A stretch of DNA of 43,784 bases from a virus (taxonomy: Duplodnaviria; Heunggongvirae; Uroviricota; Caudoviricetes). Below are positions 1-15,126 of this stretch, in pieces; the stretch's first letter is position 1, and every line of letters starts with the position of its first letter. The DNA is taken from IMG/VR virus record IMGVR_UViG_3300042946_001496. The stretch is one strand, 5' to 3'. The translations under genes were made by a program, and so were the position numbers. A model generated the notes under the pieces. The model had not been told where the DNA came from. It was given only the letters and a program-made list of their open reading frames with translations, and made no database searches.

Positions 1-35
1 AAAATGACTGAAGAACAAAAGAAAATTGTCAACAG

Positions 36-342
36 TGTTCTTTAAAAGTGCTTGGATTCTTAGGCAATCGAAAGAAATGAAAAAAATAAACCAAAAACTA
101 CTGGACTCTTTCACTAAACCAGTTTGTAAAAAGTGTAATGAAGAATTATTTGTTTCGAATCCCGCCACTATCCGTAAACTCGCTGCTATGGTCAGCAGTA
201 ATTGGCGCCGGTATCTGGTTCCAATAATGTGTATTAACGAAAAGTGTAGCAATAAGTATAGATCTGTTGAACTAGATCACAACTAATCTAGTTTTTACCA
301 TGTTCTTTAAAAGTGCCTGGATTTTTAGGCAATCGAAAGAAA
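36..342 (+). repeat. 42-bp direct repeat (36-77 and 301-342)
   Basis: TGTTCTTTAAAAGTGC(T/C)TGGATT(C/T)TTAGGCAATCGAAAGAAA, 2 mismatches, bracketing paralog 1. Confidence 0.85.
77..286 (+). CDS. Small Cys-rich (zinc-ribbon-like) protein, 'NKKLLDSF' paralog 1
   Basis: ATG at 77 inside track ORF 26..286; MKKINQKLLDSFTKPVCKKC...CINEKC; N-terminus shared with three neighbours. Confidence 0.7.
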   Translation: MKKINQKLLDSFTKPVCKKCNEELFVSNPATIRKLAAMVSSNWRRYLVPIMCINEKCSNKYRSVELDHN

Positions 343-511
343 AACAAAGTTAAAGTAAAAAGTAACACTAAGGTGGACCTAGCCCCGCCTCTATTCCGCC
401 TATAAAACTACGCAGGTAGCTTTATAGCGGCTTATGACGGGTTTTTAAATTAAATTAATCACATTACACATTGTTTTTAAAACCTACCTTTAAATCTCAA
501 TTTTAGAGCTT

Positions 512-736
512 ATGAACGATTCTAACAAAGATCTCTTAGATAGCTTCGTAAAACCTCTTTATTGTCCATGTTGTTCAACCGTTTCCTGGCTTGACTGTTC
601 ATCTTATAAACTTCATGAATTATTAATATTTAAACCTCCTTATCGTCATTACATCTGTTCTTTATGCACAACAGTGTGGTATTTTCTTGAAATGAAAGAA
701 AATTCTAAACCTTGTAGAGCTGCTACTCCTTTTTAA
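512..736 (+). CDS. Small Cys-rich protein, paralog 2
   Basis: MNDSNKDLLDSFVKPLYCPCC...CSLC. Confidence 0.7.
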   Translation: MNDSNKDLLDSFVKPLYCPCCSTVSWLDCSSYKLHELLIFKPPYRHYICSLCTTVWYFLEMKENSKPCRAATPF

Positions 737-788
737 TGACTGATCCCGGAGCGAAGAACACAAGTAAAGCCTTTTTTTAACATTCTTT

Positions 789-941
789 ATGAACGAATCT
801 AACAAAAAACTCTTAGATAGCTTTAAAAGTCCAGTTTGTGATATCTGTAAAGAACAGCTTGATCAACCTTGGTGGATTGTGGCAAGTTCTTGCTATTACT
901 ATTGCTCTAAGTGTAATCGCTGGACAAAAGGCATTAAATGA
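789..941 (+). CDS. Small Cys-rich protein, paralog 3 (50 aa, below ORF-track cutoff)
   Basis: Read by hand: MNESNKKLLDSFKSPVCDICKEQLDQPWWIVASSCYYYCSKCNRWTKGIK*. Confidence 0.7.
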   Translation: MNESNKKLLDSFKSPVCDICKEQLDQPWWIVASSCYYYCSKCNRWTKGIK

Positions 942-1077
942 ACTGGAGTGGAATATCGTCCAACAGTATTAAAATTGCACGAAGTAGGACTGAATGACCA
1001 CGGACCGTTCTACTATTGTCCTTATTGTCATGTCTATTGGTTTTCTATTTACAATCCATGGATTAAAGAACAACTAA

Positions 1078-1290
1078 ATGAAACCATCTAACAAAAAACT
1101 ACTACACAGCTTTAATACTTACTACTGTCCTAATAGCGAGAAAAATATTCCAATCTTCAACCACCCTCACCCTAAAACAACTTTAATTAAATCCGTATTT
1201 GAAAGTAAATTCGATTACGCTTGGTATGCGGGATATGAATGTCCTTATTGCCGGTGGCAGTTCTTTAAAGAGGAAGTTGAGGACAACTAA
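1078..1290 (+). CDS. Small Cys-rich protein, paralog 4
   Basis: MKPSNKKLLHSFNTYYCP...YECPYC. Confidence 0.65.
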   Translation: MKPSNKKLLHSFNTYYCPNSEKNIPIFNHPHPKTTLIKSVFESKFDYAWYAGYECPYCRWQFFKEEVEDN

Positions 1291-1860
1291 TTTTTTATAG
1301 AAAGAATACAAATTTTGTCTTGAATTTTTAGACGTGCTCATAAAAACCGTACCGAAATTTGTTTTCTTTTCTATAAGAATACAAATTTTTCCAAATTTAT
1401 CAGGAGACAACAGATCGTTCGACATGGAGATTTTTTTGAAGCACAAAATATTTTCTTTCTGTAAAAGATACAAATTCTACTCTTCTCCTGAACCTGCAGC
1501 TCTTCAAAAACAAGTCTGAAAATCTTTCTTTTCTATAAAAAATACAAATTCTGTTCCGTGTAATATTATATTAGGTGGCGTAATATAATTTTTTTGAAGC
1601 ACAAAATATTTTCTTTCTGTAAAAAATACAAATTCTACTCTTCTCCTGAACCTGCAGCTCTTCAAAAAACAAGTCTGAAAATCTTTCTTTTCTATAAAAA
1701 ATACAAATTCTTTTCCCTGACATTAATGTGTGGAACTCGATTTTATTCTCGCTGTCAGACATATTCTTTTCTATAAAAAATACAAATTCTTTTCCGTGAA
1801 ATATTATATTAGGTGGCGTAAAAAATATTTTCTTTCTATAAAAAATACAAATTCTTTTCC
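1291..1860. repeat. AT-rich interspersed repeat array, 8 copies of about 27 bp
   Basis: Consensus TTTTCT(T)TCT(A/G)TAAAAAATACAAATTCT; ATACAAATT core at 1306, 1379, 1468, 1542, 1626, 1701, 1780, 1845; some intervening segments are themselves duplicated. Confidence 0.85.
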
Positions 1861-1962
1861 GTGAAATATTGCCGGAGTGCTCGGACGTGAAATGCTATTC
1901 TTTTCCCAGCATATGATATACTCTGACAAATTCTTACAAAATTCCGTTTGGTGGTACGCTGG

Positions 1963-2090
1963 GGAGGTGAGCGACTACCTTCTTAGTTGGTCCGGTATGA
2001 CGCATGATTCAAGTTGTGCGTTGAAAGTTGGGACAAAAAGCCGATAAGTAAGGGTACACAGGGTTCCCCAAGCCCTACAGATCCCTGAAT
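1963..2090 (+). ncRNA. Candidate structured RNA (ORF-less cassette)
   Basis: Follows promoter 1955; no ORF; stems GTCC(1990)/GGAC(2031), ACGCA(2000)/TGCGT(2017), CAGGG/CCCTG. Confidence 0.35.
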
Positions 2091-2091
2091 T

Positions 2092-2474
2092 GTAAGCTAT
2101 ACAAAACCCAATTTAATTTAAACGAACTAGAGGTCAAAGTCCGGTTTTAAATGTGGTTAATGCTAGTTTCTTCACCACAAGGTCTTTAATACAACAAGGA
2201 AAAGGAATGAAACCTGGAGATAGCATTTTTGAAGACATCATTTCTCTCTTTGTAATTGTTTTCACTCTTTGTCAACCTAGCATAGCAATTTTGTGTGTTA
2301 ACACCTTGTTTGGACTCGATATTCAATATACGCCAGCTAACTACATATCAGCGGCGATTTTAATCTTCATCCCAATTGGAAATAACATGATTTACACCAC
2401 CAAACCATCACGGTTCCCAAATTGAAGCCTTAAGTAAGCTATACAAAACCCAATTTAATTTAAACGAACTAGAG
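2092..2474 (+). repeat. Perfect 41-bp direct repeat (2092-2132 and 2434-2474)
   Basis: GTAAGCTATACAAAACCCAATTTAATTTAAACGAACTAGAG twice, flanking the 2207 ORF. Confidence 0.9.
2207..2425 (+). CDS. Small hydrophobic (probable membrane) protein
   Basis: ATG 2207 preceded by AAGGAAAAGGA; two hydrophobic stretches (IISLFVIVFTLC..., YISAAILIFIPIG). Confidence 0.65.
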   Translation: MKPGDSIFEDIISLFVIVFTLCQPSIAILCVNTLFGLDIQYTPANYISAAILIFIPIGNNMIYTTKPSRFPN

Positions 2475-2483
2475 TGAAACCCG

Positions 2484-2723
2484 ATGAAATATATCATTGT
2501 TGCTGATGAAGGTTTTGAAAAAGCCATTTTGTTTGATGAACTGTTGAGTCACAAAATGGTAGCAGGTTTAACACCTGTGGTTTCTGCTGGGTTTTGTAGT
2601 CTTATTGTTGACAACTTCCAACAATCAACTGTTCAAGTATGGGGAGAAAGTGTTACCCTTAAATTGAAGTCTCGCATCACCGATGCTGCATTAATTCTTG
2701 ATGCGGTAAATTCAAGCCTTTAA
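2484..2723 (+). CDS. Hypothetical protein
   Basis: ORF track; follows second 41-bp direct repeat. Confidence 0.7.
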   Translation: MKYIIVADEGFEKAILFDELLSHKMVAGLTPVVSAGFCSLIVDNFQQSTVQVWGESVTLKLKSRITDAALILDAVNSSL

Positions 2724-2747
2724 CCTTTACAAGCAAAAGCTACAAAC

Positions 2748-2978
2748 ATGACTAAGAAAGAACTGCTTGAGCTTTTGAAGGATGTGCCGGATGATGGTTT
2801 GATTGTTGTTCATGGACATTCTGATGGTGGTGGTTATAATGATTGTTTTGATGTAGAGGAAAAAACTATTGCCCGCACTGTTCCTTCTGGACACGCTTGG
2901 AATTGGAGAGGACAATACGAAGAACCTTGGAAAGATACCAAACCAGAAGATATCATTAAGGCATATGTAATTACTTGA
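2748..2978 (+). CDS. Hypothetical protein (acidic)
   Basis: ORF track, co-oriented and closely spaced. Confidence 0.7.
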   Translation: MTKKELLELLKDVPDDGLIVVHGHSDGGGYNDCFDVEEKTIARTVPSGHAWNWRGQYEEPWKDTKPEDIIKAYVIT

Positions 2979-3112
2979 CTTCCATGCAGAGTGTGGTAGA
3001 CTAAGAAAACAAGGAGACAAACAATGACAATTAACGAATATATGAGTGTCTCTAGACTTAATTAATCTAGCCTATGCTTAAGCGGATTGATTATCCCGCC
3101 GTGCATGACACT

Positions 3113-3156
3113 AAACCCAGGACTAGACTAAAGATTCTAGTCCTGGGTTTTTTTCT
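3113..3156 (+). terminator. Intrinsic terminator
   Basis: AACCCAGGACTAGA-loop-TCTAGTCCTGGGTT followed by T-run. Confidence 0.85.
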
Positions 3157-3318
3157 GCTCTTATCCCTAAACTTAACTTATTAATGCCTGAAAATATATC
3201 TTACCTTGATAATATATTAACAATAATAATATATTGTAAGTCTTTAAGTCTAGCAGTTGGTGGTACGCTAGTAGGGTGTGACGGAATGAGTTCCAACAAA
3301 AACACGAGGGTTAAAAAC

Positions 3319-3621
3319 ATGGCTAAGGCTGCTAAGGTTGATGTTCAGGCTGGTCAGGTGGGTCGTAAGGTCGGTCAGAAGAGTGTGGACGTTGAGACGT
3401 TCATCAAGACGCTTGTCAATGTCCACCGTAAGGGTGGAACGCAGACGATGGTTGCGGAGACGCTTGGCATTACGCCAGCGGCTGTTAGTCTCCGCATCAA
3501 GTATCTTCGAGATGCGGGTGTGAAGGGTCTGCCGGAGTTCGATAATCGTGGTGGTAACACCGCTGGTAAGGTTGTTGAGCGTGCTAAGGCTGCTCTTAAG
3601 GCTATGGGCATCAAGGGTTGA
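3319..3621 (+). CDS. Winged-HTH DNA-binding protein, paralog 1 (most divergent)
   Basis: ATG 3319 after GAGGG; QTMVAETLGITPAAVSLRIKYLRDAG resembles BirA-type/HTH_11 HTH. Confidence 0.8.
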   Translation: MAKAAKVDVQAGQVGRKVGQKSVDVETFIKTLVNVHRKGGTQTMVAETLGITPAAVSLRIKYLRDAGVKGLPEFDNRGGNTAGKVVERAKAALKAMGIKG

Positions 3622-3715
3622 ACTTGAAGCCTAAACTTGCTGGGGGTAGGGTTTAATCGCCCCACCCCCAGCATTTTTTTTAACTTACCACTCCGGTCTG
3701 GTGGTACGCTGTATG

Positions 3716-4035
3716 GGTGTGAGGAAGTAAGCGACTCTGGGCAACATAAGCACCATAAAGTCAGTAGTTCGTCTTTAGTCCTCATAGGTGATGCGTACTC
3801 AATTGTAAGTCTGACGTACGGTTTCCTTTAGCCCTTGGTGGCTACTTTACTCTTCGGAGTAATGAAGTTAATGACTTACTAAAGGGCTAGTGTATTAAGA
3901 ACCTTGTGGTGAAGAAACTAGCATTAACCACATTTAAAACCATCCTTTAAGGTACGCAAATAAATTCAATAAGATAAAATAAAGATACCAGAAACGGATG
4001 AAGGGTGGGTTAGAGTAAAATCTAGCCCACCCTTT
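3716..4035 (+). ncRNA. Candidate structured RNA of about 300 nt containing the 41-nt antisense element
   Basis: Between promoter 3705 and terminator near 4000-4042; no convincing ORF; TGAGGA/TCCTCA, CGTAC/GTACG, TAGCCCTT/AAGGGCTA, TTACTC-TTCG-GAGTAA. Confidence 0.55.
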
Positions 4036-4093
4036 TGTTTTTTCTCTTGAAAAAGAAAAGTTTTAAGCTATAATAAATAAAGCTACGATTAAT

Positions 4094-4167
4094 GCCCCTA
4101 TCGTCTAACGGTTTTAGGATAACAAACTTTCACTTTGTAGATCGGAGTTCGATTCTCCGTAGGGGTA
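4094..4167 (+). tRNA. trnE: tRNA-Glu(TTC)
   Basis: Acceptor GCCCCTA/TAGGGGT, anticodon arm ACAAA-CTTTCAC-TTTGT, T arm CGGAG-TTCGATT-CTCCG; CCA not encoded; TTGAAA-N16-TATAAT at 4047-4074. Confidence 0.92.
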
Positions 4168-4249
4168 TTTTTTAGTTTTAAATCTGAGTTTTTTACACTA
4201 ATTTAAAGCATGAAGACATGTTTTAAATGTGGTGAAACAAAAGATTCCC

Positions 4250-4276
4250 AGCGTACCACCAACCAACAACAGTAAA
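4250..4276 (-). promoter_or_regulatory. Single inverted copy of the cassette promoter
   Basis: AGCGTACCACCAACC at 4250-4264 is the reverse complement of GGTTGGTGGTACGCT. Confidence 0.75.
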
Positions 4277-4395
4277 TAAAAAAAGCCTAATTAAGCAGCA
4301 CAAGTTTTAAAAAGAAACTTACTACTGTCAGTTGGTGGTACGCTGGTGGGGTGTGTGAGACGGACAACAAACAACCCCCCAGTAAGGAGTCAGTT

Positions 4396-4644
4396 ATGGC
4401 TGGTCGTTCTAGTGTCGATATGAAGACTTTCCTTGGTAAGGTCGTTGAGGCTTACCACAATGGTCACAATCAGTCGTGGATTGCGGCTGAGTTGGGTGTG
4501 AGTGCAGCCGCAGTTAGTCTGCGGATCAGCGGACTGCGTAAGAAGGGAGTTAAGCTCCCGGAGTTGGTGAGCGGTAGGGGTTCGGTTAACACCGTTGAGG
4601 ATGCAAATAACATCCTCGCTGATCTCGGTTTTGATGCTGAGTGA
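4396..4644 (+). CDS. Winged-HTH protein, paralog 2
   Basis: ATG 4396 after AAGGAG; NQSWIAAELGVSAAAVSLRISGLRKKG. Confidence 0.88.
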   Translation: MAGRSSVDMKTFLGKVVEAYHNGHNQSWIAAELGVSAAAVSLRISGLRKKGVKLPELVSGRGSVNTVEDANNILADLGFDAE

Positions 4645-4765
4645 GCTTAGCGTTAAGCCAACTGGTAAGGGGGAGGTAACACTCCCCCTTACCTTTTTTT
4701 ATACCTACTATCCTTAACTTAACTAACTAAAACTTATTTAAATTACATTGCTTTGGTGGTACGCT

Positions 4766-4794
4766 GTTAATATATTATCAGCCAATATATTAAC
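4766..4794. promoter_or_regulatory. Palindromic operator-like or mini-hairpin element, copy 1 (others at 5445-5473 and 6119-6147)
   Basis: GTTAATATATT-N7-AATATATTAAC immediately after a promoter and before a second promoter. Confidence 0.6.
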
Positions 4795-4891
4795 AACGCA
4801 AAAATATTAATGCGACTACACGTTTGGTGGTACGCTGGATAACTAGTCCCCATTTTGTCCCCATTTCACCCTTTGTTAAGGAGTGTTAATT

Positions 4892-5341
4892 ATGGATAGC
4901 CGAGATTTTGCTCGTAAGATGGGCGATTGGTACAAAAGCATCGACAAGGTTGCTTTCACCGCCACTGTTAGTTACAATAATTGGGACAATGATGATAACG
5001 AGGTTGAGGAAACCTTTACTGTTCCTTTCAAGTACACGGTTTGCAGTCTTTGCAACGGTGTTGGAACTCACGTTAATCCCAGCGTTGATAGTAACGGTTT
5101 GACTAGTGAAGATTTTGCCGAGGATGATGATTTCAGGGAAAGTTACTTTAGTGGTGCTTACGATATGCCTTGCAATAAGTGTCATGGTAAGGGACTAACA
5201 CCTGAATATGATGAAACTCGTGCTAGTCCTGAGATTAAGAAAAAGATGACATCTTACCTAAAGTATCGTAAAGATGTTGCTGAAGATATGGTTAACGATG
5301 CTTACACTCGTCGTATGGAAAATGGTGGTTATGGTTACTAA
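4892..5341 (+). CDS. Protein with DnaJ-type CxxCxGxG zinc-finger motifs
   Basis: ATG 4892 after AAGGAG; CSLCNGVG and CNKCHGKG. Confidence 0.75.
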   Translation: MDSRDFARKMGDWYKSIDKVAFTATVSYNNWDNDDNEVEETFTVPFKYTVCSLCNGVGTHVNPSVDSNGLTSEDFAEDDDFRESYFSGAYDMPCNKCHGKGLTPEYDETRASPEIKKKMTSYLKYRKDVAEDMVNDAYTRRMENGGYGY

Positions 5342-5521
5342 CCACATTAACTAAAACTAAACAGAAAGGAAGGGCTAACAACCCTTCCTTTTTTTTACAA
5401 TAATATCTTAACTTATTTAAATTACATTGCTTTGGTGGTACGCTGATAATATATTATCAGCAAATATATTAACAAACATGTATTAATTCTTAAGCGTCGG
5501 TTCTGGTGGTACGCTGGAACA

Positions 5522-5642
5522 GTGGGAGTTCAACCCCGTGGTAATCGGTCCTAACAGACCAAGCAATACCACAAACTTGAACTGTGCCTAGATCTTGTTC
5601 CTCCGTGGGACTTTAGGCGAGAAAAAACGGAGGCTAATTTTT
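5522..5642 (+). ncRNA. Candidate structured RNA with 3' H-type pseudoknot
   Basis: AGTTCAA/TTGAACT, GTGGTA/TACCAC, GGTC/GACC; interleaved GCCTAG(5586)/TTAGGC(5613) and CCTCCGT(5600)/ACGGAGG(5627); T-tract follows. Confidence 0.55.
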
Positions 5643-5723
5643 TTTTCTTAACAGTTCGGTTTGGTGGTACGCTGTGGTGGTGTAAGGCAACGAACGATAA
5701 AACCTCCAATAAGGAACGATAAC

Positions 5724-5981
5724 ATGGGTCGCCCATCTGGTAAGAATGCGGTTTCGATGAAGACTTTCCTTGGTAAGGTCGTTGAGGCTTACCACAATGG
5801 TCACAATCAGTCGTGGATTGCGGCTGAGTTGGGGGTGAGTGCAGCCGCAGTTAGTCTGCGGATCAGTTCCCTTCGTAAGAAGGGAGTTAAGCTCCCGGAG
5901 TTGGTGAGCGGTAGGGGTTCGGTTAACACCGTTGAGGATGCGAATAACATCCTCGCTGATCTCGGTTTTGACGCTGAGTGA
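5724..5981 (+). CDS. Winged-HTH protein, paralog 3
   Basis: ATG 5724 after AAGGAA; near-identical to paralog 2 from MKTFLGK onward. Confidence 0.88.
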   Translation: MGRPSGKNAVSMKTFLGKVVEAYHNGHNQSWIAAELGVSAAAVSLRISSLRKKGVKLPELVSGRGSVNTVEDANNILADLGFDAE

Positions 5982-6194
5982 GCTTAGCGTTAAGCCAACT
6001 GGTAAGGGGGAGGTAAAACTCCCCCTTACCTTTTTTTATACCTACTATCCTTAACTTAACTAAAACTTAACTAACTAAACTTAATTTATTTAACTAAAGA
6101 TTGCTTTGGTGGTACGCTGTTAATATATTATCAACCAATATATTAACACCTAAAATATATTATTGAAAATCATTTCTGGTGGTACGCTGGGAAG

Positions 6195-6362
6195 GTGTCG
6201 AGGACCGACGTCATTCATTTCTTTGAGTGCGATCGGCAAGATACAGCGGCTGGTTCGCTGGTATATTAGAAAAAGTCTATTTAATTAAAAGAACGAAGAA
6301 TAGTAGATAAAAGTAGATAAATGGGTAAGGGAGACTATAGGATGCTGTAGTCTCCCTTACTT
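6195..6362 (+). ncRNA. Candidate sRNA family A, copy 1
   Basis: ORF-less cassette; GTGTCGAG..TTGAGTG..CGGCAAGAT..CAGCGG-CTGGT-TCGCTG; long terminator TAAGGGAGACTATAG/CTGTAGTCTCCCTTA. Confidence 0.6.
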
Positions 6363-6443
6363 TTTTACTTAACACCGATCTGGTGGTACGCTGGGGGTGT
6401 GTAAGGCAACGAACAGTAAACCCCAAAATCAAGGAACATTAAC

Positions 6444-6692
6444 ATGGCTGGTCGCTCTAGTGTCGATATGAAGACTTTCCTCAGCAAGGTTGTTGAGGCT
6501 TACCACAACGGTCACAATCAATCGTGGATTGCGGCTGAGTTGGGTGTCTCCCCTGCCGCTGTTAGCCTGCGGCTTAGTGGACTGCGTAAGAAGGGTGTTA
6601 GGGTGCCGGAGTTGGTGAGCGGTAGGGGTGGAAGTAACACCGTTGAGGATGCGAATAACATCCTCGCTGATCTTGGTTTTGACGCTGAGTGA
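6444..6692 (+). CDS. Winged-HTH protein, paralog 4
   Basis: NQSWIAAELGVSPAAVSLRLSGLRKKG; AAGGAA upstream. Confidence 0.88.
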   Translation: MAGRSSVDMKTFLSKVVEAYHNGHNQSWIAAELGVSPAAVSLRLSGLRKKGVRVPELVSGRGGSNTVEDANNILADLGFDAE

Positions 6693-6901
6693 GCTTAGCG
6701 TTAAGCCAACTGGTAAGGGGGAGGTAACACTCCCCCTTACCTTTTTTTTTAACATACTAACAATTAAAATAAACATAAAATCGTACCTTGGTAGTACGCT
6801 GGACTGAAAAATAACTAACACCTATTAATTTATTAATAAAGTCCAGTTCTGGTGGTACGCTATGGGGGTGTTCTTTAATTTAGCCTCACTGGAGCCTAGT
6901 C

Positions 6902-7099
6902 ATGGCGAAGAAAGTAAGCTTGGCTGAAATGAATCGGATCATCCACGAGCGGGGATTCTTGAAGCCTGAAGAGCGGCTTTTCACAAAGCCTTGTTGTCAT
7001 TGTGGAAACTACGTGAGAGAGCGGGAGGCTCTTTGTCCAACGTGTGTCAAAGAGATCGAAAACGATCAATTCGATGATGAATTGCAAATTCAAGATTGA
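6902..7099 (+). CDS. Small zinc-ribbon protein
   Basis: CCHC...CPTC; GGAG upstream; own promoter and terminator. Confidence 0.75.
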   Translation: MAKKVSLAEMNRIIHERGFLKPEERLFTKPCCHCGNYVREREALCPTCVKEIENDQFDDELQIQD

Positions 7100-7168
7100 A
7101 CTAAGGGGGGAAGTTACTAACCCCCTTAACTTTTTTACTTAACAGCGTTTTGGTGGTACGCTGGTAGG

Positions 7169-7316
7169 GTGTCGAGCAGCAACATCTCACTTTGAGTGGG
7201 GCGGCAAGATCCAGCGGCTGGTTCGCTGGTTATATATAAGGAAAAAATTAAGTAAAAAGTAAATAGTAGATAAATGGGTAAGGGAGACTATAGGACGCTG
7301 TAGTCTCCCTTACTTT
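7169..7316 (+). ncRNA. Candidate sRNA family A, copy 2
   Basis: Same ordered motifs and same long terminator as copy 1. Confidence 0.6.
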
Positions 7317-7354
7317 TTTACTTAACACCTGTTCTGGTGGTACGCTGTGGAGCT

Positions 7355-7491
7355 GTCAACAGTAGTCGTCGCCACTGCCTGAGTTGGAATCGCTAACCAA
7401 ACGTAAGCAGCGTGGACGGCTTCCACATTACACACATTAGCGACCGTAGTGTGCGACTATAGAGCCGGATCGTAAATGGCTCGCTGTTGAC
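7355..7491 (+). ncRNA. Candidate multi-stem RNA with kissing-loop pseudoknot
   Basis: Ends pair (GTCAACAG/CTGTTGAC); TAGTCG/CGACTA; CTGC/GCAG; TTGG/CCAA; CACAC/GTGTG; GAGCC/GGCTC; loop TCGCTAA complementary to loop TTAGCGA. Confidence 0.65.
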
Positions 7492-7564
7492 TTTTTAACT
7501 AACAACAGTTTGGTGGTACGCTAGGAAGGTGTTCGATAGGCTTCTACCTTTCAAGGAGTTAAAC

Positions 7565-7690
7565 ATGGGTTTCACCATGATCATTGGATGGAATATGCCT
7601 GACGGTAGCAGCGAGGCTGCCTACATTGATGGCATTATGAAACAAATCGAGCAGCAAAGACGAAAGCGTAAAAAGCGTCGTAAAAAGTAA
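7565..7690 (+). CDS. 41-aa peptide with very basic C-terminus
   Basis: Read by hand: MGFTMIIGWNMPDGSSEAAYIDGIMKQIEQQRRKRKKRRKK*; AAGGAG upstream; fills one cassette. Confidence 0.7.
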   Translation: MGFTMIIGWNMPDGSSEAAYIDGIMKQIEQQRRKRKKRRKK

Positions 7691-7803
7691 AACTAAAGGG
7701 GGAAGTTACTAACCCCTTAACTTTTTAACTAACAACCAGTTTGGTGGTACGCTATGGTGGCGTAAGGTAACGAACAACAACCCTCCAATTAAGGAACAGC
7801 AAC

Positions 7804-8052
7804 ATGGCTGGTCGCTCTAGTGTCGATATGCGTGTTTTTCTCGCCAAGGTCGTCGAAGCCCATAAGAAGGGCATGAATCAATCGTGGATCGCCAATGAAC
7901 TTGGCGTGACTCCTGCCGCTGTTAGCCTGCGGCTTAGTGGACTGCGTAAGAAGGGTGTTAGGGTGCCGGAGTTGGTTTCTGGTCGAGGCGGTAGTAATAC
8001 CGCTGAAGACGCAAATAACATTCTGGCTGATCTCGGTTTTGACACCGAGTGA
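7804..8052 (+). CDS. Winged-HTH protein, paralog 5
   Basis: NQSWIANELGVTPAAVSLRLSGLRKKG. Confidence 0.88.
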   Translation: MAGRSSVDMRVFLAKVVEAHKKGMNQSWIANELGVTPAAVSLRLSGLRKKGVRVPELVSGRGGSNTAEDANNILADLGFDTE

Positions 8053-8141
8053 ATGCCAGATTAAAAAGTAAGTTAAGGGGGGACTAACACTCCCCCCTTA
8101 ACTCTTTTACTAACAATAAACTCTGGTGGTACGCTGATGAA

Positions 8142-8245
8142 TTGTCCGCAGCGGCTGGTCTGCTGTTAAAAGAATTATTTAAATATTTCAAAATGTATTA
8201 ATAATTCTGGACAGGTTAAAGGGGGAGGTTACTAACCCCTTAACT
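8142..8245 (+). ncRNA. Candidate sRNA family A, copy 3 (short form)
   Basis: TGTCC(8143)/GGACA(8209) enclosing CAGCGG-CTGGT-CTGCTG and AGAATTATT/AATAATTCT. Confidence 0.5.
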
Positions 8246-8336
8246 CTTTTACTAACAATAAACTCTGGTGGTACGCTGTGGTGTTGTAAGTGAACGATTG
8301 ATTAGGCTTCCCGTTCACCTTCTTTAAGGATAACAA

Positions 8337-8474
8337 ATGTATGAAATAACTAGCGTTGACACTGGTAAAACCATTGTCATGACTCGGAGCGAGGCTGAAC
8401 AAATGTTCGGCAAAAATGAGTTTAAAGAGATGCTGGCGGGAAGTTTACCGCACCTAATAGTAGTTAAACTCTGA
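8337..8474 (+). CDS. 45-aa hypothetical protein
   Basis: Read by hand: MYEITSVDTGKTIVMTRSEAEQMFGKNEFKEMLAGSLPHLIVVKL*; AAGGA upstream. Confidence 0.7.
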   Translation: MYEITSVDTGKTIVMTRSEAEQMFGKNEFKEMLAGSLPHLIVVKL

Positions 8475-8573
8475 GGTTATTAAGGGGGACTAACCGTCCC
8501 TCTTAACTCTTTAACTTAACACACGGTTTGGTGGTACGCTGTTTGTGTGCCGGACCTTAAAAAGAGGATTAAG

Positions 8574-8843
8574 ATGATTTTCACCGCACAACAAGCTAGG
8601 GATAATAGCATTCTTAAAGCCACCTTGGATAAGATTTACGAAAAGATCAAAATCGTCAGCAAAGACAAAAATGATCTTACTATTGTTTTTGGTGAAAATC
8701 CCGATTTTGAATACTGTGATGCTTATCGCAATGAAGAAGACATCAAAGAAAATCTTGAAAAGGCTGGCTATGAGGTTCGTTGGGATTACACCACTCCCCT
8801 CGGCATCCCTACACTCTATATCGATTGGCGTTTTCCTAACTAA
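8574..8843 (+). CDS. Hypothetical protein
   Basis: ATG 8574 after AGAGGA, in frame with track ORF 8547..8843. Confidence 0.75.
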   Translation: MIFTAQQARDNSILKATLDKIYEKIKIVSKDKNDLTIVFGENPDFEYCDAYRNEEDIKENLEKAGYEVRWDYTTPLGIPTLYIDWRFPN

Positions 8844-8938
8844 AGAAGGGGATTAAATATCCCTAACTTTATACTTAACGACCTGTTGGTGGTACGCTGT
8901 GGTGGTGTAAGTTAAACCCTCAAACAAGAAAGAATATC

Positions 8939-9172
8939 ATGAATAACGACTGCTGTTGGCACTCCAGCTGGAAGAAGAACCACCCGGAACCCGTTGCCGC
9001 CCCTTGCGTTTATGATCTTGATTTCATTTTCAAGGCGATGGCTAACAAAACAAAGATTACAATTCAAGGGGTCACCGGAATTATCAGTGGTATCGAAACA
9101 ACGAGTGCGGACAATGGATACAGATTGAGTTTCTGCGATAGAGCCGGTTGGGTTGTAGTCGTTGCAAAGTAA
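8939..9172 (+). CDS. Hypothetical protein, 'YDLDFIF' paralog 1
   Basis: Shares YDLDFIF(K/N)AMA...G.I(S/T)GIE with 11576..11893. Confidence 0.75.
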   Translation: MNNDCCWHSSWKKNHPEPVAAPCVYDLDFIFKAMANKTKITIQGVTGIISGIETTSADNGYRLSFCDRAGWVVVVAK

Positions 9173-9263
9173 ACAGCTAAAGGGGGAAGTTACTAACCCC
9201 TTAACTTTCTTCTTGCAACAAGTTTGGTGGTACGCTATAGTGGTGTAACCCCGGAGAAAAGAT

Positions 9264-9530
9264 ATGAATGACATTCGTAGAGGCAGGGTTGTTACTGAAG
9301 AGTATCTTCAGTACGTTGATAGCATAGTCAATCAAGACAATAGTCTTGAAGACTTGGTGTCAGAAGTTATTTGCGGCAATCCTACAGACGTTGCCGCAAA
9401 GATTATCATTCAGTCTATGCGAAGGCTAGCAGAACTGGAACGTCCACGAAACCCGCTCGGAAGAACTGCTACATTTGAACAAAATGCCAATAGGGCAATT
9501 GACGAAACTTGCGAAAAGCATTTTGGGTGA
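9264..9530 (+). CDS. Hypothetical protein
   Basis: GGAG upstream; fills one cassette. Confidence 0.75.
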   Translation: MNDIRRGRVVTEEYLQYVDSIVNQDNSLEDLVSEVICGNPTDVAAKIIIQSMRRLAELERPRNPLGRTATFEQNANRAIDETCEKHFG

Positions 9531-9603
9531 AACTAAAGGGGGAAGTTACTAACCCCTTAAGTTTTTACTAACAAATAAGTTGGTGGTACGCTGGATGACT
9601 ATC

Positions 9604-9828
9604 ATGGAAATCAAACCCATCAACGACAATAACAGTCAATTTGACTTGGTAGAGTTGCGGTCAAGTCACTATTCGGCACCACAGCAAACTCCTCACTGTA
9701 AGATTCATGGAGCTATGAACTGTGTGGCTGTTCATGCTACAGGGAAATTGTGGCGTTGCATACAGAGTAATCAATTAAAGGATTGTCGGGCTGGGTGTGA
9801 GGAGTTAATAACAACACAGAACAAATGA
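9604..9828 (+). CDS. Cys/His-rich hypothetical protein, probably near-leaderless
   Basis: ATG 9604 lies 11 nt after the -10 hexamer at 9587-9592; CKIHGAMNC...WRC...CRAGC. Confidence 0.65.
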   Translation: MEIKPINDNNSQFDLVELRSSHYSAPQQTPHCKIHGAMNCVAVHATGKLWRCIQSNQLKDCRAGCEELITTQNK

Positions 9829-9881
9829 AGGGCTAACCCCTAGTTTTTAACTAACACCAAGTTTGGTGGTACGCTGTGGGG

Positions 9882-10170
9882 GTGTTCGATAAGTGTTCCT
9901 AAACCACAAATGTTTAGGGGTGTCAAAGGCAAAACCTTTGCAGTAGAAGCGGCTTGTTAGGTCGTGGATGTAAAGAGAAAACTTTGGCTTGAACCGGTAA
10001 TTCCCTGTAAGAATGGGTTAATCACCGGCAACCCCGGAGTAAGATAGCGGGGTTTTCTAAGTAAGAAGAAGGCAAGAGTAGTCGCAAAGGCGTACTCGTA
10101 GCCGATGGCGGGCAAGATCAGCACCTTTTGCTTCAATGCGGGTGTCGTCACGTTCGATTCGTGATAATCT
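9882..10170 (+). ncRNA. Candidate structured RNA of about 290 nt ending in a T-loop hairpin
   Basis: No credible ORF; successive hairpins CCTAAAC/GTTTAGG, AAAGG/CCTTT, CCGGT/ACCGG, AACCCCG/CGGGGTT, GAGTA/TACTC, GCACC/GGTGT; TCACG-TTCGATT-CGTGA at 10148-10164. Confidence 0.6.
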
Positions 10171-10229
10171 TACTTACAATACATTTGTGGTACGCTCTGC
10201 CAGTGTAAGCCACACACAAAGGAGAAGCC

Positions 10230-10562
10230 ATGAGCTACGAAGGCGTTGAAGAGTTCATTTGTAATAAGGGTCATTACTGGACTCTGGATGCCGGTGTCCT
10301 CCATTACGACTTCCTTGATAACATGAGGATAATGGAAAAGGTTGCTTGTCCGCATTGTAAGGAAACCCCAGCCTACACTTGTAGTGTTGATGAAACCAAT
10401 GGTTACGATCCTAACCTTCCATGTACCTTTCATGGACCGAAAATTGAAATCGGTTATGAGGATATTGAGATGCAGGATCACCACGGAAATAAATACTTCG
10501 TTAAGTTGGAACGATACAAACCGGACAATTCCACAAATCGGTGGAGAAAAGAAGGGGACTAA
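10230..10562 (+). CDS. Cys/His-containing hypothetical protein
   Basis: AAGGAG upstream; CNKGH, CPHC. Confidence 0.75.
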   Translation: MSYEGVEEFICNKGHYWTLDAGVLHYDFLDNMRIMEKVACPHCKETPAYTCSVDETNGYDPNLPCTFHGPKIEIGYEDIEMQDHHGNKYFVKLERYKPDNSTNRWRKEGD

Positions 10563-10657
10563 ACATCCCCTTACTTTTTAACTTAACAACCAGTTTGGTG
10601 GTACGCTGTGGTGGCGTAAGGAACGATAAACAACAACCTCCAATAAGGAACGATAAC

Positions 10658-10948
10658 ATGGGTCGCCCCTCTGGCAAAGATGCAATTTCGATGCAGACGT
10701 TTCTTGGTAAAGTGGTGGAAGCGTATCGCAACCACCACAATCAATCGTGGATCGCACGGGAGTTGGGTATCACTCCTGCCGCTGTTAGCCTGCGGCTTAG
10801 TGGGTTGCGTAAGAAGGGCGTGAAGGTGCCGGAACTGGTTTCTGGTCGAGGTGGAAGTAACACCGTTGAGGATGCGAATAACATCCTCGCTGATCTTGGG
10901 TTCGATGGCAACGATGAAGCGGATCATTATGCTGGTCCGATCGGGTGA
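10658..10948 (+). CDS. Winged-HTH protein, paralog 6
   Basis: ATG 10658; NQSWIARELGITPAAVSLRLSGLRKKG; C-terminal extension. Confidence 0.88.
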   Translation: MGRPSGKDAISMQTFLGKVVEAYRNHHNQSWIARELGITPAAVSLRLSGLRKKGVKVPELVSGRGGSNTVEDANNILADLGFDGNDEADHYAGPIG

Positions 10949-11046
10949 GTAAAATGGGGGGAGGTTACTAACCCCCGTTTTTTACTTTGATACGCTGTTA
11001 GTGGTACGCTAGCATGGTGTGAGAACCACCTTCAAGGAGGAACGGT

Positions 11047-11133
11047 ATGCAAGTCAACATGACATTCGTGGAACAGATAGTCTGCCTTGTTGCTCTGATA
11101 GCCGGGATTGTGTTTGCTGCGTTGTTTGGTTGA
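11047..11133 (+). CDS. 28-aa hydrophobic single-helix peptide
   Basis: Read by hand: MQVNMTFVEQIVCLVALIAGIVFAALFG*; AAGGAGG upstream; fills one cassette. Confidence 0.7.
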   Translation: MQVNMTFVEQIVCLVALIAGIVFAALFG

Positions 11134-11232
11134 AAAATAGGGGGGGAGGTTACTAACCCCTTTAACTAACACTTTGAGTTGGTGGTACGCTATGGTGGCG
11201 TAAGTGACAATCAACCCTTCAAGGAGTTCAAG

Positions 11233-11472
11233 ATGAAGACTCGCAAGACTGTCAACCTTGTCAAGTTCATGCAGACCATCGTCAAGGCTGCTGCAAACGG
11301 TCACAACCAGAGCGACGTTGCTCGTTCGCTGGGGGTTACTCCCGCCGCTGTTACCTTGCGGCTTCAGAGTCTCCGCAAGAAGGGCGTTAAGGTTCCTAAC
11401 ATCAATGCCAATGCCGGTTGGGTTGATTGCAAGATGACTGCTAGTGAGCGGCTGGCTGCTGCCTACCGTTGA
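11233..11472 (+). CDS. Winged-HTH protein, paralog 7
   Basis: ATG 11233 after AAGGAG; NQSDVARSLGVTPAAVTLRLQSLRKKG. Confidence 0.85.
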   Translation: MKTRKTVNLVKFMQTIVKAAANGHNQSDVARSLGVTPAAVTLRLQSLRKKGVKVPNINANAGWVDCKMTASERLAAAYR

Positions 11473-11575
11473 GTTAAGGTTAAGGGGGGAGGTTACTAAC
11501 CCCCTGTTCATTTAACCAAGAGTGGTTTGGTGGTACGCTGTGGTGGTGTAAGCCTCCAACAACATAAGGTGTGAA

Positions 11576-11893
11576 ATGACTGACGATGCCATCGGATTTA
11601 ACGGACGTCACAGCGTTGCGGTTCCTTGCGTTACGGAGCGTGTCGGCGTAGGTCTCACCCAAGGCGACCCGTTCGATGAGGAGGAAACGAGGATCTACGA
11701 TCTTGACTTCATCTTCAACGCAATGGCTAAGTCGTTGGACGTGGTTGTTGGTATGAAAAGGGGGAACATTACAGGCATCGAAAAGTTGGGGGGCGATGAA
11801 TATCGTCTTTGCCTTCAATGGCACGATAAACGTTTTTCTTACGGTTCCGATGCTCGTGATTATGCAACCATCACCGCAAGGCAACTAAAGTGA
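11576..11893 (+). CDS. Hypothetical protein, 'YDLDFIF' paralog 2
   Basis: Similarity to 8939..9172. Confidence 0.75.
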   Translation: MTDDAIGFNGRHSVAVPCVTERVGVGLTQGDPFDEEETRIYDLDFIFNAMAKSLDVVVGMKRGNITGIEKLGGDEYRLCLQWHDKRFSYGSDARDYATITARQLK

Positions 11894-11994
11894 AGTTAAA
11901 GGGGGGACTAAAAATCCCTCCTTAACTCTTTTACTTAACAACAAGTTTGGTGGTACGCTGTGAGGGTGTAAGACCTTAAATAAAGGAGACAGCA

Positions 11995-12210
11995 ATGCGA
12001 ATGTCCTTCAAGAGTCTTGAGTCGTTCGCTCGTGAGCGTGGCTACACTGTTGAGCGGAGGGGCAGGATGATTGAGTGGTGTCGCAATGAGGATCACTCAA
12101 TGATCGGTGTAGTATACAGTGTTCACGAAGCCTACAGCGAGATCAAACAGGATTGGGATAGATGGATAGTAAGGATCCACAACCATATACTCCACGGCAC
12201 GACCGGCTAG
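11995..12210 (+). CDS. Hypothetical protein
   Basis: AAGGAG upstream; last ORF-bearing cassette. Confidence 0.72.
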   Translation: MRMSFKSLESFARERGYTVERRGRMIEWCRNEDHSMIGVVYSVHEAYSEIKQDWDRWIVRIHNHILHGTTG

Positions 12211-12629
12211 TATCCATCTATTCATAACAAAGGGGGAAGTTACTAACCCCCTGTTCATTTAACACAAGGATAGTTTGGTGGTACGCTATAGAGTTGCAAC
12301 AAAGCCTTTAACAAAAAGATTTAACAAAATTAAAAATTAAAAAAATAATGTAAAAAAACTATAAAAAAAATAGTAGTAGGGGAGGGGGTTCCACCGCCAT
12401 TACACTCTTTTTCTTTTGTTCTTTTCGTTTTTTTCTGTAGGGTTTTAGATTTTTCAAAATTAAAAGCCCAACAACTTTATAAAAATCCCCATAACCTTAA
12501 AATATTAAAAAACCATTTTAGAAAAAAATGCGGCGGAAAAAATTTTCAATATACAGTAGGGTTTTTAAATAAAAAAGACTTTGGAAAAATCCAAAGTCTT
12601 TTAAAGGAGAAAAAACAAAAGAAAAGATT

Positions 12630-13124
12630 TCAACCATCTAGTCCTCTAATCCTCATTCCCCGGTCATAAGAGTCTGCTCTTCGCCAATTACCGGTTGGCT
12701 TGTAGCTGCTTCCTGTAGATCTCCCCGCACTATACTGTTCGGTATCTTTTAATTTTCTTTCTGCGTTTATTCTTTCTGCGTCTATTCTTTCAGCTTCAGC
12801 TTCAGCTTCAGCTCGTCTTTTTGCATCTTTTGCTTTTCTTGCTGCAATATCGTGTTGTCGTTGAATCAGCAATTCAAGATGAGCTTGCTTGGCGGGATGA
12901 GCTCTTCTAAACTCATTAGATTTTTCAATTTTTTCCATTGCTTCTTTTGCTTTTGGATTATTAGGATCAGAGGCAGTTCTTAACAACTCTCTAAAAGCAT
13001 CTTCGCTATAAGAATTAAAAAATGTAAAATAAGAAAGTATATTATCAATCCAAGATATTCCAGTACCTTCATCTAAAATAAAATTAGGATGTTCATTTTC
13101 TAACCACTTACTAAATCTTTTCAT
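12630..13124 (-). CDS. Putative internal head protein with capsid-targeting-like N-terminus
   Basis: MKRFSKWLENE; charged helical middle; AAGGAG upstream. Confidence 0.65.
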   Translation of the reverse strand: MKRFSKWLENEHPNFILDEGTGISWIDNILSYFTFFNSYSEDAFRELLRTASDPNNPKAKEAMEKIEKSNEFRRAHPAKQAHLELLIQRQHDIAARKAKDAKRRAEAEAEAERIDAERINAERKLKDTEQYSAGRSTGSSYKPTGNWRRADSYDRGMRIRGLDG

Positions 13125-13191
13125 TTATTCTCCTTTTAAGATACTTTTATATATGAAAAAAATTTGATTTTCGTATTGAAAAATCTTTCAC

Positions 13192-13280
13192 GCAAGGGGT
13201 GGCAAGGGGTGGCAAGGGGTGGCAAGGGGTGGCAAGGGGTGGCAAGGGGTGGCAAGGGGTGGCAAGGGGTGGCAAGGGGG
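13192..13280. repeat. Tandem 10-bp repeat (GGCAAGGGGT), 9 copies
   Basis: Directly visible; nine GGGG runs on one strand. Confidence 0.95.
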
Positions 13281-13320
13281 TCTATCCATACTGTGAAGCA
13301 CAAAACTCAAAATTTTTTCC

Positions 13321-13349
13321 TTGACTTCCAGACCATGGTTTTATATGAT
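13321..13349 (+). promoter_or_regulatory. Sigma70-type promoter
   Basis: TTGACT-N17-TATGAT upstream of ATG 13396. Confidence 0.6.
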
Positions 13350-13395
13350 CTGTGCATCGGACGAGAAAAAGAATTTTAAAAAGAAAGGATTCTCT

Positions 13396-15126
13396 ATGGG
13401 AACAGAAATTCACAGAATAAGACAGCAGGAGTTTAATTTCCCTTTTGTCAACGACAATATAAAAGATAAAGGGGCAAAAGTTATAAGAGAGCAGACAAAA
13501 AATGCCCTAGAGCATAATGGTCGTTGTGCTTACGTCGTTCCAGCTTTAATACCCGGTGACGAAAACACCTATTTGCTGTGGGCTAGCGATGCTGATAAGT
13601 TCGATGATGTGGAAAGTCAAAAGAAAGCACATTTTCTTGGTCAAAGTTTAAGGCAAAACAATATTGCGAGTGGAGTTCAAGGATCGGGAATACCTTCATC
13701 AATGATAATGCTAGCTCGCGATAAGGGCGAGTGCATGATATGCAGTATTGATGGCAACAAAGGATTTGTTACAAAAAGCTACATACAAGAAGGTGTTGGG
13801 GCTGAAGCTGGCACATATGCTCAGCGTGTAGAAGAAGTAACATCGGTCTCTGTTCCAAATTGCAATTTTACATATCTTGAACTTTTCAAAAAGTTTATTG
13901 GAAAGCCTGACTTTAATAAAGAAGAAAACGAAATAAATGTTTTGTTTTTATATAAAGTCATCAGAACTCCAAATGACGCAATATCTCTTAGTGGCTATAA
14001 AGACAAAATTATTACTTGCGGAACAATAAATACGTTTCATGAAATTTGTGAACCTGGTCTAGGTTTAGATGAAAGATTTAAACTATATTACTCGGTCACT
14101 AATCAAGGTGTTGGAGAATATATTATAAATGAAACAGAAAATTCTCCAGAAACAGTTCAATTTGTTGCACTATCTGACCATTGGTGTCCTGGCAGGAACA
14201 CAAACAAGATTAACATTGGAATAACACAAGAAAAGTACTTTTCTGAGTTTGGTAGAGACAAAATAGACTGTAGGGATTTTGATGTTGTGTATGAATATAA
14301 AGATACTTTTGATTCAAACATCAAAATTCATTGTTCAGTTGATTTGCAAATCCAGATGTATCCAGGCTTTTTAAGAACTACAGCGAGAGGTCAAGGCATT
14401 TCTAGACTTTGCAAGCTGAAGGACGGTCATGCTTCTCACAATTCAATGGAAAGCACCGAAAGGTTATTTCTATCTTACAAATTTCTTGAGAAAACTTTTT
14501 CTGGTTCTTCTGCAGAAAGAGCTTTTAAAGATCCTGTATTATGGTTTAACAATAGCAGAATTAATTCTTTCACAAGTATTCTTGGTCTAAACTGTAATGT
14601 TAACGTTTCTAATCCTTTTAAAGATCATGAATCTTGGAAAGAAGAATATACTTGGATATACGATAAGATAGAGGAAGAGAGTATAAAAGGAAGATCTCCT
14701 TTTGTAAAGTTTTTTATTGATATCAAAGACATTATTAAAATAGAAAGAAATGGCGAAGAAATTAAAAATCAAAATATTTTTAATTTCTTGGGATCTTATG
14801 ATGCATTTTTTTCAATGACAAGTGAGGAATCAGTAAGAACTAATTCGACTTTAATAAAAGTTGTTTTGGAAGCTTTTTCAAAGCAAAAAGAATTTAGTGA
14901 TTTCGTTGAGCTTCATAAGAAATATTTCCCCTATGATAAGAGTGATGAAATAAAAGGAGATTTAATCAAGACTTCTATTTCTAAAACACGATCAAGGGTG
15001 GACGTTTGGATTGAGGAATCCCTTTCAAATGCTTCGAAGCCCGCCAAGCCCGCTCCTGGGGTTGGGGCTAGTGGTAGTAACTCTGGTGAAGTATCAAACA
15101 AAAGAAAGAAGAAAGAAAAGGTTTAA
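13396..15126 (+). CDS. Large protein with putative N-terminal GHKL (Hsp90/MORC-like) ATPase domain
   Basis: ATG 13396 after AAAGGA; REQTKNALEH (N-box-like), SGVQGSGI (G2-box-like); G1 box DxGxG not evident. Confidence 0.5.
   Translation: MGTEIHRIRQQEFNFPFVNDNIKDKGAKVIREQTKNALEHNGRCAYVVPALIPGDENTYLLWASDADKFDDVESQKKAHFLGQSLRQNNIASGVQGSGIPSSMIMLARDKGECMICSIDGNKGFVTKSYIQEGVGAEAGTYAQRVEEVTSVSVPNCNFTYLELFKKFIGKPDFNKEENEINVLFLYKVIRTPNDAISLSGYKDKIITCGTINTFHEICEPGLGLDERFKLYYSVTNQGVGEYIINETENSPETVQFVALSDHWCPGRNTNKINIGITQEKYFSEFGRDKIDCRDFDVVYEYKDTFDSNIKIHCSVDLQIQMYPGFLRTTARGQGISRLCKLKDGHASHNSMESTERLFLSYKFLEKTFSGSSAERAFKDPVLWFNNSRINSFTSILGLNCNVNVSNPFKDHESWKEEYTWIYDKIEEESIKGRSPFVKFFIDIKDIIKIERNGEEIKNQNIFNFLGSYDAFFSMTSEESVRTNSTLIKVVLEAFSKQKEFSDFVELHKKYFPYDKSDEIKGDLIKTSISKTRSRVDVWIEESLSNASKPAKPAPGVGASGSNSGEVSNKRKKKEKV

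Follow-up and report, generated by a model that had tools for sequence, protein, structure and literature searches.

Seven genes, h1 to h7, in a 43,784-nucleotide stretch of tailed-phage DNA (IMG/VR record IMGVR_UViG_3300042946_001496; the whole stretch is hereafter the window) encode small helix-turn-helix (HTH) proteins. We propose that these proteins are most likely early phage DNA-binding regulators acting on arrays of the palindrome AATATATT within the cassette array in which their own genes lie, a reading drawn from sequence comparison to which we give a probability of about 0.45. The window is part of the genome of a large lake phage, a virion protein of which is 33–38% identical to T4-like cyanophage proteins. 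The candidate target is concentrated where the genes are: AATATATT occurs nine times in the cassette array against 0.43 expected, and seven times in the other 31 kb against about seven expected.

Family, fold and subtypes of the seven HTH proteins

The preliminary description of this DNA had singled out seven open reading frames (ORFs) as paralogs with a nearly invariant recognition helix. All lie on the + strand and encode proteins of 79–100 amino acids: h1 (3319..3621, 100 amino acids), h2 (4396..4644, 82), h3 (5724..5981, 85), h4 (6444..6692, 82), h5 (7804..8052, 82), h6 (10658..10948, 96) and h7 (11233..11472, 79). For h1 a longer reading from the ATG at 3286 is possible; the start at 3319 is favoured by its orthologs and by a better Shine-Dalgarno sequence. 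A hidden Markov model of the family, run over the whole window, retrieved exactly these seven and no further copy. The proteins are indeed paralogs that align end to end with 19 invariant columns, and the claim of a nearly invariant helix motif holds as well, mean pairwise identity being 0.74 in the HTH core (h1 residues 42–72) against 0.53 elsewhere. That the differences sit mainly at the termini was roughly right, although helix 1 varies too.

For h4, the copy chosen for folding, AlphaFold predicted an HTH fold from 84 homologs, with helices at residues 9–22, 26–33 and 37–49 and a predicted local distance difference test score (pLDDT) of about 88, followed by a low-confidence linker and a weak C-terminal helix (residues 68–77). 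In h1 the model repeats this plan after a disordered basic arm of 24 residues, and each of the two models contains a single HTH module. No beta strand was predicted after helix 3 in either model, although confidence falls past residue 55 and a short wing may be present there. The likeness to the winged, BirA-type HTH_11 family suggested earlier was not borne out: a predicted wing strand is missing, and the Pfam model HTH_11 (PF08279) scores the window copies at 13–15 bits, below its 25-bit gathering cut-off and no better than a dozen other HTH families. At E≤0.01 it matched 15 of 84 family members, fewer than matched HTH_1, HTH_24 or HTH_28. Searches of Pfam, PHROGs, NCBIfam and PADLOC gave no model at its cut-off, just sub-threshold generic HTH matches; Foldseek found no PDB or BFVD structure at E≤0.001, ESM Atlas returned unnamed viral clusters only, and a literature search for such a small HTH family found nothing. 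The best VIA-align matches (Z 4.7–5.9) were all HTH DNA-binding domains, namely those of IdeR, GcrA, Tn3 resolvase, BirA, Mos1 and Cbp2, and domains of the same kind from LysR and Lrp were further structural neighbours. A profile search of PDB sequences pointed to LrpA (E 0.003) and ZitR/AdcR over helices 2–3. The models thus support an assignment of h1 to h7 as HTH proteins, with the wing not established, and we consider it highly probable that the family binds DNA.

A flexible basic N-terminal arm opens the domain plan and is followed by the three-helix HTH. A conserved K-G-V-x-V-P-E segment comes next, then a loose linker and finally a short C-terminal helix. This last helix depends on the subtype: A and D have an acidic one, B a basic one and C yet another. 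Gly-Arg occurs in the N-arm of 81 of 118 family members, often as GRPAGK (GRPxGK); among the window proteins the arm, disordered in the models, carries GRP in h3 and h6, GR in h1, h2, h4 and h5, and neither in h7. A GRP-containing N-arm recalls AT-hooks and the minor-groove arms of Hin-type proteins. With generic HTH domains (the Lrp/AsnC, MarR (ZitR/AdcR), LysR, BirA and DtxR/IdeR N-terminal domains, and the tri-helical domains of resolvase/Hin, Pax and Mos1 type) the family shares the three-helix core and the L-G-(V/I)-S-x-x-x-V-S-x-R pattern in helices 2–3. It differs from them in scoring below every curated cut-off, in the absence of predicted wing strands and of any ligand-binding or dimerisation domain, and in the K-G-V-x-V-P-E segment and subtype-specific C-terminal helix, which are peculiar to it. 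We therefore regard h1 to h7 as members of a phage-specific family of small, predicted DNA-binding proteins that is absent from curated libraries.

Relatives were collected by a word-index search, which retrieved 179 metagenome proteins, many of them sharing a contig, and thirty metagenome loci and three IMG/VR loci were fetched for comparison. Multiple copies are the rule where enough DNA is available (nine in 18 kb of locus L078, four in 5.9 kb of L083, five each in L088, L089 and L092). The relatives' copies all lie on one strand, with a GGTACG-type promoter motif 40–55 nt before the ATG wherever upstream DNA is present, and copy order and number differ among L083, L088 and L089. A maximum-likelihood tree and the alignment divide the family into subtypes. 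Subtype B comprises h1, with its long basic N-arm (..GRKVGQK..) and a basic C-terminal helix ending in MGIKG, and five orthologs sharing these features (L088, L089, L094, L097 and L102). Subtype C unites h7, whose divergent C-terminus ends in AYR, with L083_4823, and subtype A2 unites h6, which bears a short extra tail, with L083_4276 and L085_402. Subtype A1 consists of h2, with its acidic C-terminal helix, h3, a mosaic whose N-terminus MGRPSGK is that of h6, h4, h5 and L081_650; subtype D, marked by an acidic tail, was seen in relatives only. In a distant clade (L078–L080), helix 3 reads SAANVSNRAKK or PAAVSVKAKK in place of PAAVSLR.

The preliminary description had explained the repetition as dosage amplification against one target. 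One part of this stands, in that helix 3 is under purifying selection, which fits one shared or similar target. Among h2 to h6 the ratio of nonsynonymous to synonymous substitution rates (dN/dS) is 0.09–0.44, with dS ranging from 0.19 (h2/h3) to above 1, and dS against h1 and h7 is saturated. In the HTH core, 13 of the 14 invariant residues are written with at least two codons, so the helix has been kept by protein-level selection and not by recent copying. If all copies did the same job and copy number only raised the amount, the near-invariance of helices 2–3 would be expected, and the view gains from h2–h5, which form one lineage-specific cluster with 79–91% mutual identity, and from signs of gene conversion: the 3' parts and terminators of h2 and h3 are 97% identical in DNA, and the h3 N-terminus is that of h6, which suggests exchange between the h2 and h3 copies and an h2/h3/h6 mosaic. 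However, several copies have reached dS saturation with the protein preserved, other phages contain orthologs of subtypes B, C and A2, which have conserved termini of their own and C-helices of opposite charge, and the B-type genes stand in a different promoter context, with boxes. Pure dosage therefore does not fit these old, differentiated subtypes, and we consider it improbable. The amplification is partly old and differentiated (dS above 1) and partly young, only h2–h5 looking like a younger, lineage-specific cluster, and subtypes with distinct N- and C-termini and with orthologs in other phages point to a division of labour.

Further relatives carry the module in tandem. An exhaustive profile search found 1267 proteins at E≤0.001, the top-ranked ones with 5–13 matched stretches. 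P0121 (740 amino acids) is a 12-unit chain, each unit of which shares 33–45% identity with h4 residues 14–56, the G-V-x-(V/I)-P-E segment included, and in P0130 an A-like unit is naturally fused to a B-like one. Chains reach 12–13 modules (P0121, P0142), and in P0121, P0122, P0128 and P0142 we observed 10–13 tandem copies of an HTH module of about 50 amino acids with the same G-V-x-V/I-P-E ending. A search for the chain proteins in genome and viral contigs found nothing, and the only tblastn matches were distant multi-HTH proteins (24–26%) encoded on Bacillus plasmids, by mycobacteriophage DS6A (gp64) and by Caulobacter jumbo phages. By analogy, the chains support the idea that modules of this kind may act side by side on DNA.

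Cassette promoters, and palindrome boxes as candidate operators

Each HTH gene is, by its sequence signals, a stand-alone unit with its own promoter motif, Shine-Dalgarno sequence and terminator, within a 10-kb array of about 32 cassette units. The 12-mer TGGTGGTACGCT occurs 33 times in the window against 0.03 expected, always within 1949–12287, and 32 of the copies are on the + strand. It precedes all seven genes as a putative promoter, its end lying 41–51 nt from the ATG (3258..3269 for h1; from 4333, 5662, 6381, 7742, 10596 and 11180 for h2 to h7, all on the + strand), which bears out the earlier claim of separate promoters. A Shine-Dalgarno-like GGAG, AGGA or GAGG stands ahead of every one of the seven ATGs, and a G+C hairpin with a T run, resembling a terminator, lies 3' of every stop codon: at 3633-3678 (h1), 4664..4693 (h2, + strand), 6001-6030 (h3), 6712-6741 (h4), 8071-8103 (h5), about 10956-10976 (h6) and about 11484-11504 (h7). 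In the array as a whole, 30 terminator-like hairpins were found against 9 expected. When the 32 + strand units are aligned, their consensus is a G-run/C-run hairpin, a T-rich stretch, TTTACT or TTAACT, 17 nt, TGG-TACGCT and then GTGGTGGTGTAAG. The -10 element TACGCT agrees with TATAAT at only three of six positions, and for this reason a standard promoter scan missed it.

Such constancy raises the question of whether the target of the HTH proteins is the cassette promoter, at TGGTGGTACGCT or in its flanks, so that the whole array would be shut off or boosted in a global early-to-middle switch. Thirty of the 33 copies of the 12-mer are exact, a constancy beyond what sigma recognition by itself needs, and the GGTACG core accompanies the family in all clades. 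On the other side, the motif is not palindromic; helix 3 stays constant where the motif differs (TACGCT, TACGAT, TACACT), and the GGTAC core stays constant where helix 3 differs. Helix 3 and motif thus vary separately across clades and do not co-vary, and we judge promoter binding of this kind to be quite unlikely.

The palindrome AATATATT makes a better candidate. Within the array it forms a pair upstream of the h1 promoter (3211..3235), a pair between the tandem promoters 4754 and 4825 just downstream of the h2 cassette (4769..4791), a pair between the tandem promoters 5433 and 5504 upstream of the h3 cassette (5448..5470) and a group of three between the tandem promoters 6107 and 6177 just downstream of the h3 cassette (6122..6161). 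In close relatives AATATATT is the most enriched 8-mer palindrome. The window and the relatives together contain 30 distinct clusters of at least two boxes, in which 49 of 56 spacings measure 15–18 bp, and the flanks extend the box weakly to YAATATATTR. Seventeen distinct promoters have a box within 70 nt upstream, and in 10 of these the nearest box centre lies 37–43 nt before the -10. Box arrays stand upstream of all four B-type genes for which upstream DNA is available (in the window, L088, L089 and L094) and of both D-type genes mapped, and the partial B gene of L102 has boxes upstream as well. No AATATATT boxes occur in the clade L078–L080, which is distant and has a changed helix 3, a single phylogenetic contrast; a search of L078 for another repeated box found none, only terminator and 5' untranslated region (UTR) palindromes. 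The palindromes, which had been listed among several possible targets, are thus real, array-specific and conserved in relatives, whereas their operator role is something that we infer. Taken on its own, the identification of the box arrays as the target of the HTH proteins is tentative.

Under our preferred reading, helix 3, common to all subtypes, would recognise one DNA element, or closely similar ones, in each of them, with the N-arm perhaps placed in the A/T-rich minor groove, and the differing ends would set the choice of partner or the sign of regulation. The best candidate for the element is the YAATATATTR palindrome in arrays of 2–5 boxes, mostly 37–43 nt upstream of the -10 of certain array promoters, among them those of the B-type gene (h1) and, in relatives, of D-type HTH genes. 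Plain cassette promoters would supply A- and C-type copies immediately; several monomers or dimers would afterwards occupy the box arrays next to one another and turn this set of promoters on or off, giving a delayed-early step with feedback within the family. The several separate genes would amount to a "split" version of the many-module HTH chains. In its most specific form, in which the paralogs assemble on AATATATT arrays spaced at 16 bp and control a subset of promoters of the promoter-early stem-loop (PeSL) type, including those of their own B and D genes, the proposal is speculative and rather unlikely to be right in full.

Several points weigh against this reading. The link between box and protein rests on co-occurrence and position and on one phylogenetic contrast. 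A palindrome of 8–10 bp is short for a classical HTH dimer, and with a spacing of 15–18 bp adjacent boxes do not share a face of the helix. There is also a similarity of the boxes to sigma-70 -10 and UP elements (TATATT beside TTAACA/TTGTTA), and they may simply be promoter parts; at box-bearing promoters the -35 is only a slightly weaker match than at other promoters, a difference that is unconvincing. All structural matches of the proteins fall below the level that is safe for a shared fold in small helical domains, and the early timing of the HTH genes is deduced from the design of their cassettes.

Composition, ORF-less units and other features of the array

The cassette array (1949–12300) is an island of composition. 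G+C at third codon positions (GC3) is 0.36–0.62 in array ORFs against 0.18–0.27 in the backbone genes (13300–36300), and the HTH genes, with 52–55% G+C, have a GC3 of 0.49–0.61. The island may consist of mobile cassettes, or of early genes tuned to the codon use of the host before phage tRNAs act. The HTH proteins could, on another reading, serve host take-over by binding host DNA or promoters, as in nucleoid or transcription shut-off, with many copies providing a fast and high early dosage. The monocistronic units with strong-looking Shine-Dalgarno sites in an early-type array, the rank of the HTH genes as the commonest family in it (7 of about 32 units) and a GC3 that could match host codon use for immediate expression all favour such a role. 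Yet no host site can be proposed, and the conserved subtypes with different termini and the box arrays beside the genes are left unexplained; we consider host take-over a rather unlikely explanation.

About half of the 32 units are ORF-less. The preliminary description had remarked that such units lie beside HTH cassettes; six of the seven HTH cassettes do precede one, but given the proportion of ORF-less units this is not beyond chance (p about 0.06). The remark touches on another reading, in which the HTH-like fold contacts a host RNA polymerase, sigma factor or defence protein, as a decoy for example, or binds the neighbouring ORF-less RNAs. Protein contact gains from a weak likeness to sigma-70 region 4 and the DNA-binding domain of GcrA, as RNA binding would from the adjacency. 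However, the adjacency does not exceed chance, the best-conserved surface is a classical DNA-reading helix 3 with Arg and Lys, accompanied by the basic N-arm, and in PADLOC just three CARF-type matches appeared, all sub-threshold (E 0.0009–0.009), which fell on h4 and h7, with none for h1 or h6. We regard protein or RNA binding as very unlikely. Two ORF-less cassettes, 6177-6367 and 7151-7320, are paralogs, with bodies that are 74% identical and contain CAGCGGCTGGTTCGCTGG and terminators that are 97% identical; they are probable small RNAs. An Rfam scan of positions 1–14000 found tRNA only.

That tRNA, tRNA-Glu(UUC), lies within the array at 4093-4168 behind a near-consensus sigma-70 promoter (4047-4074, TTGAAA-16-TATAAT, 11 of 12 positions). 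Its promoter is without the TGGTGGTACGCT motif, and the phage therefore uses at least two promoter types in the array region. The sole minus-strand copy of the promoter 12-mer (4250-4261) is located just past the tRNA and directed back at it. The tandem promoters mentioned above belong to three copies of a module of about 100 nt (4754/4825, 5433/5504 and 6107/6177), each with two 12-mers 70–71 bp apart and AATATATT palindromes between them; at the first promoter, palindromes stand where GTGGTGGTGTAAG would normally form the start region. The cassette ORFs 8939-9172 and 11576-11893 have the motif Y-D-L-D-F-I-F-x-A-M-A in common and make up a second, small family of paralogs. A direct repeat of 41 nt without mismatch (2092-2132 and 2434-2474, 342 nt apart) is located upstream of the array proper, and at the right edge about ten head-to-tail copies of the 10-mer GCAAGGGGTG (13182-13291), possibly an origin or a binding array, stand before a 601-amino-acid ORF that has no PHROG match.

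Two further observations concern the upstream DNA of relatives. In a second clade (L088, L089, L091, L096 and L100), the predicted 5' UTRs of A-type genes contain a conserved hairpin, GTGAGCGAATGAGACTCAC, directly after the promoter, which may be an element of stability or autoregulation. In L078, A-tracts phased at 10–11 bp (AAAAAGCCT/AAAAACACT repeats, 10324-10411) lie upstream of one HTH cassette, and this DNA is probably intrinsically bent.

The array DNA is found nearly unchanged in at least 14 lake or freshwater metagenome runs; a look-up of RNA data sets covering the region listed none. A megablast search of 9 kb of the region against cultured phages gave no match, and a tblastn search with h4 gave a single match at chance level. 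The promoter 15-mer occurs exactly in 77 IMG/VR contigs (a single match in 76, a double one in the other); since none has many repeats as the window does, we attribute these matches to chance and count no close relative in IMG/VR among them.

Related systems and meaning of the family

The array promoters and terminators are, as far as architecture can tell, PeSL-like, and the HTH copies of the relatives are likewise set in cassettes of this type. PeSL cassettes, described from hyperplastic regions of T4-type phages, combine a terminator stem-loop with an early promoter (Arbiol 2010, PMC2839356; Comeau 2014, PMC4122927). As in these, a stem-loop terminator stands directly ahead of a conserved promoter in many repeats among small ORFan genes, the TTTACT/TTAACT element, 17-nt spacer and TAnnnT -10 of the array resemble the TTTACW-N17-TAYWAT of PST/T4 PeSLs, and there are signs of recombination between cassettes (the h2/h3/h6 mosaic). 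In contrast, the -10 of the array is an invariant, G+C-containing TACGCT preceded by TGG, and a single amplified HTH family is not reported to dominate the PeSL arrays published so far.

A precedent for the proposed arrangement on DNA is provided by Cbp1 and Cbp2, CRISPR DNA repeat-binding proteins of archaea, in which linked HTH modules bind spaced repeats (PMC3597662; PDB 2lvs). Small HTH modules side by side on regularly spaced repeats would be common to both systems, if the window family binds as we suppose; moreover, Cbp2 (2lvs) is among the structural neighbours (Z 4.7), and relatives chain up to 13 modules. The modules of the window differ in being separate genes and proteins with one module each. 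The NCBIfam model for Cbp1 (NF040595) gave no match for h4, h1 or h7, and the chain protein P0121 reached 119.9 bits, below the cut-off of 140.

The phage T4 protein MotA has 211 amino acids and a double-wing DNA-binding domain and needs AsiA; it shows no sequence or fold relation to the window HTH proteins. MotA is one of the early phage regulators that retarget promoters, and acts at middle promoters (described in part in PMC4122927). The likeness would be one of task, an early phage protein (as proposed for h1 to h7) acting at some promoters only, through a short box that lies upstream of a TAnnnT -10. The boxes of the window are arrayed palindromes centred near 40 nt upstream of the -10, whereas the MotA box is located at -30.

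If the split multi-module switch were true, it would be the phage's own delayed-early timer, a MotA-like job done by an unrelated multi-gene device; detailed knowledge of how early expression is timed is limited to a few model phages. No gene type is more frequent than the HTH family in the early-type array of this phage, which is present in many lake metagenomes, and with a concrete, conserved candidate operator at hand, a simple binding experiment could bring a new regulatory circuit to light. The family also offers a possible reading for the widespread, unstudied long HTH-chain proteins, the same module being present here as separate small proteins. Its relatives are currently without a name or carry automatic names such as "biotin operon repressor"; even if this were an ordinary repressor family, its definition would still be a useful annotation for the 179 metagenome proteins, or 1267 when the chain proteins are included.

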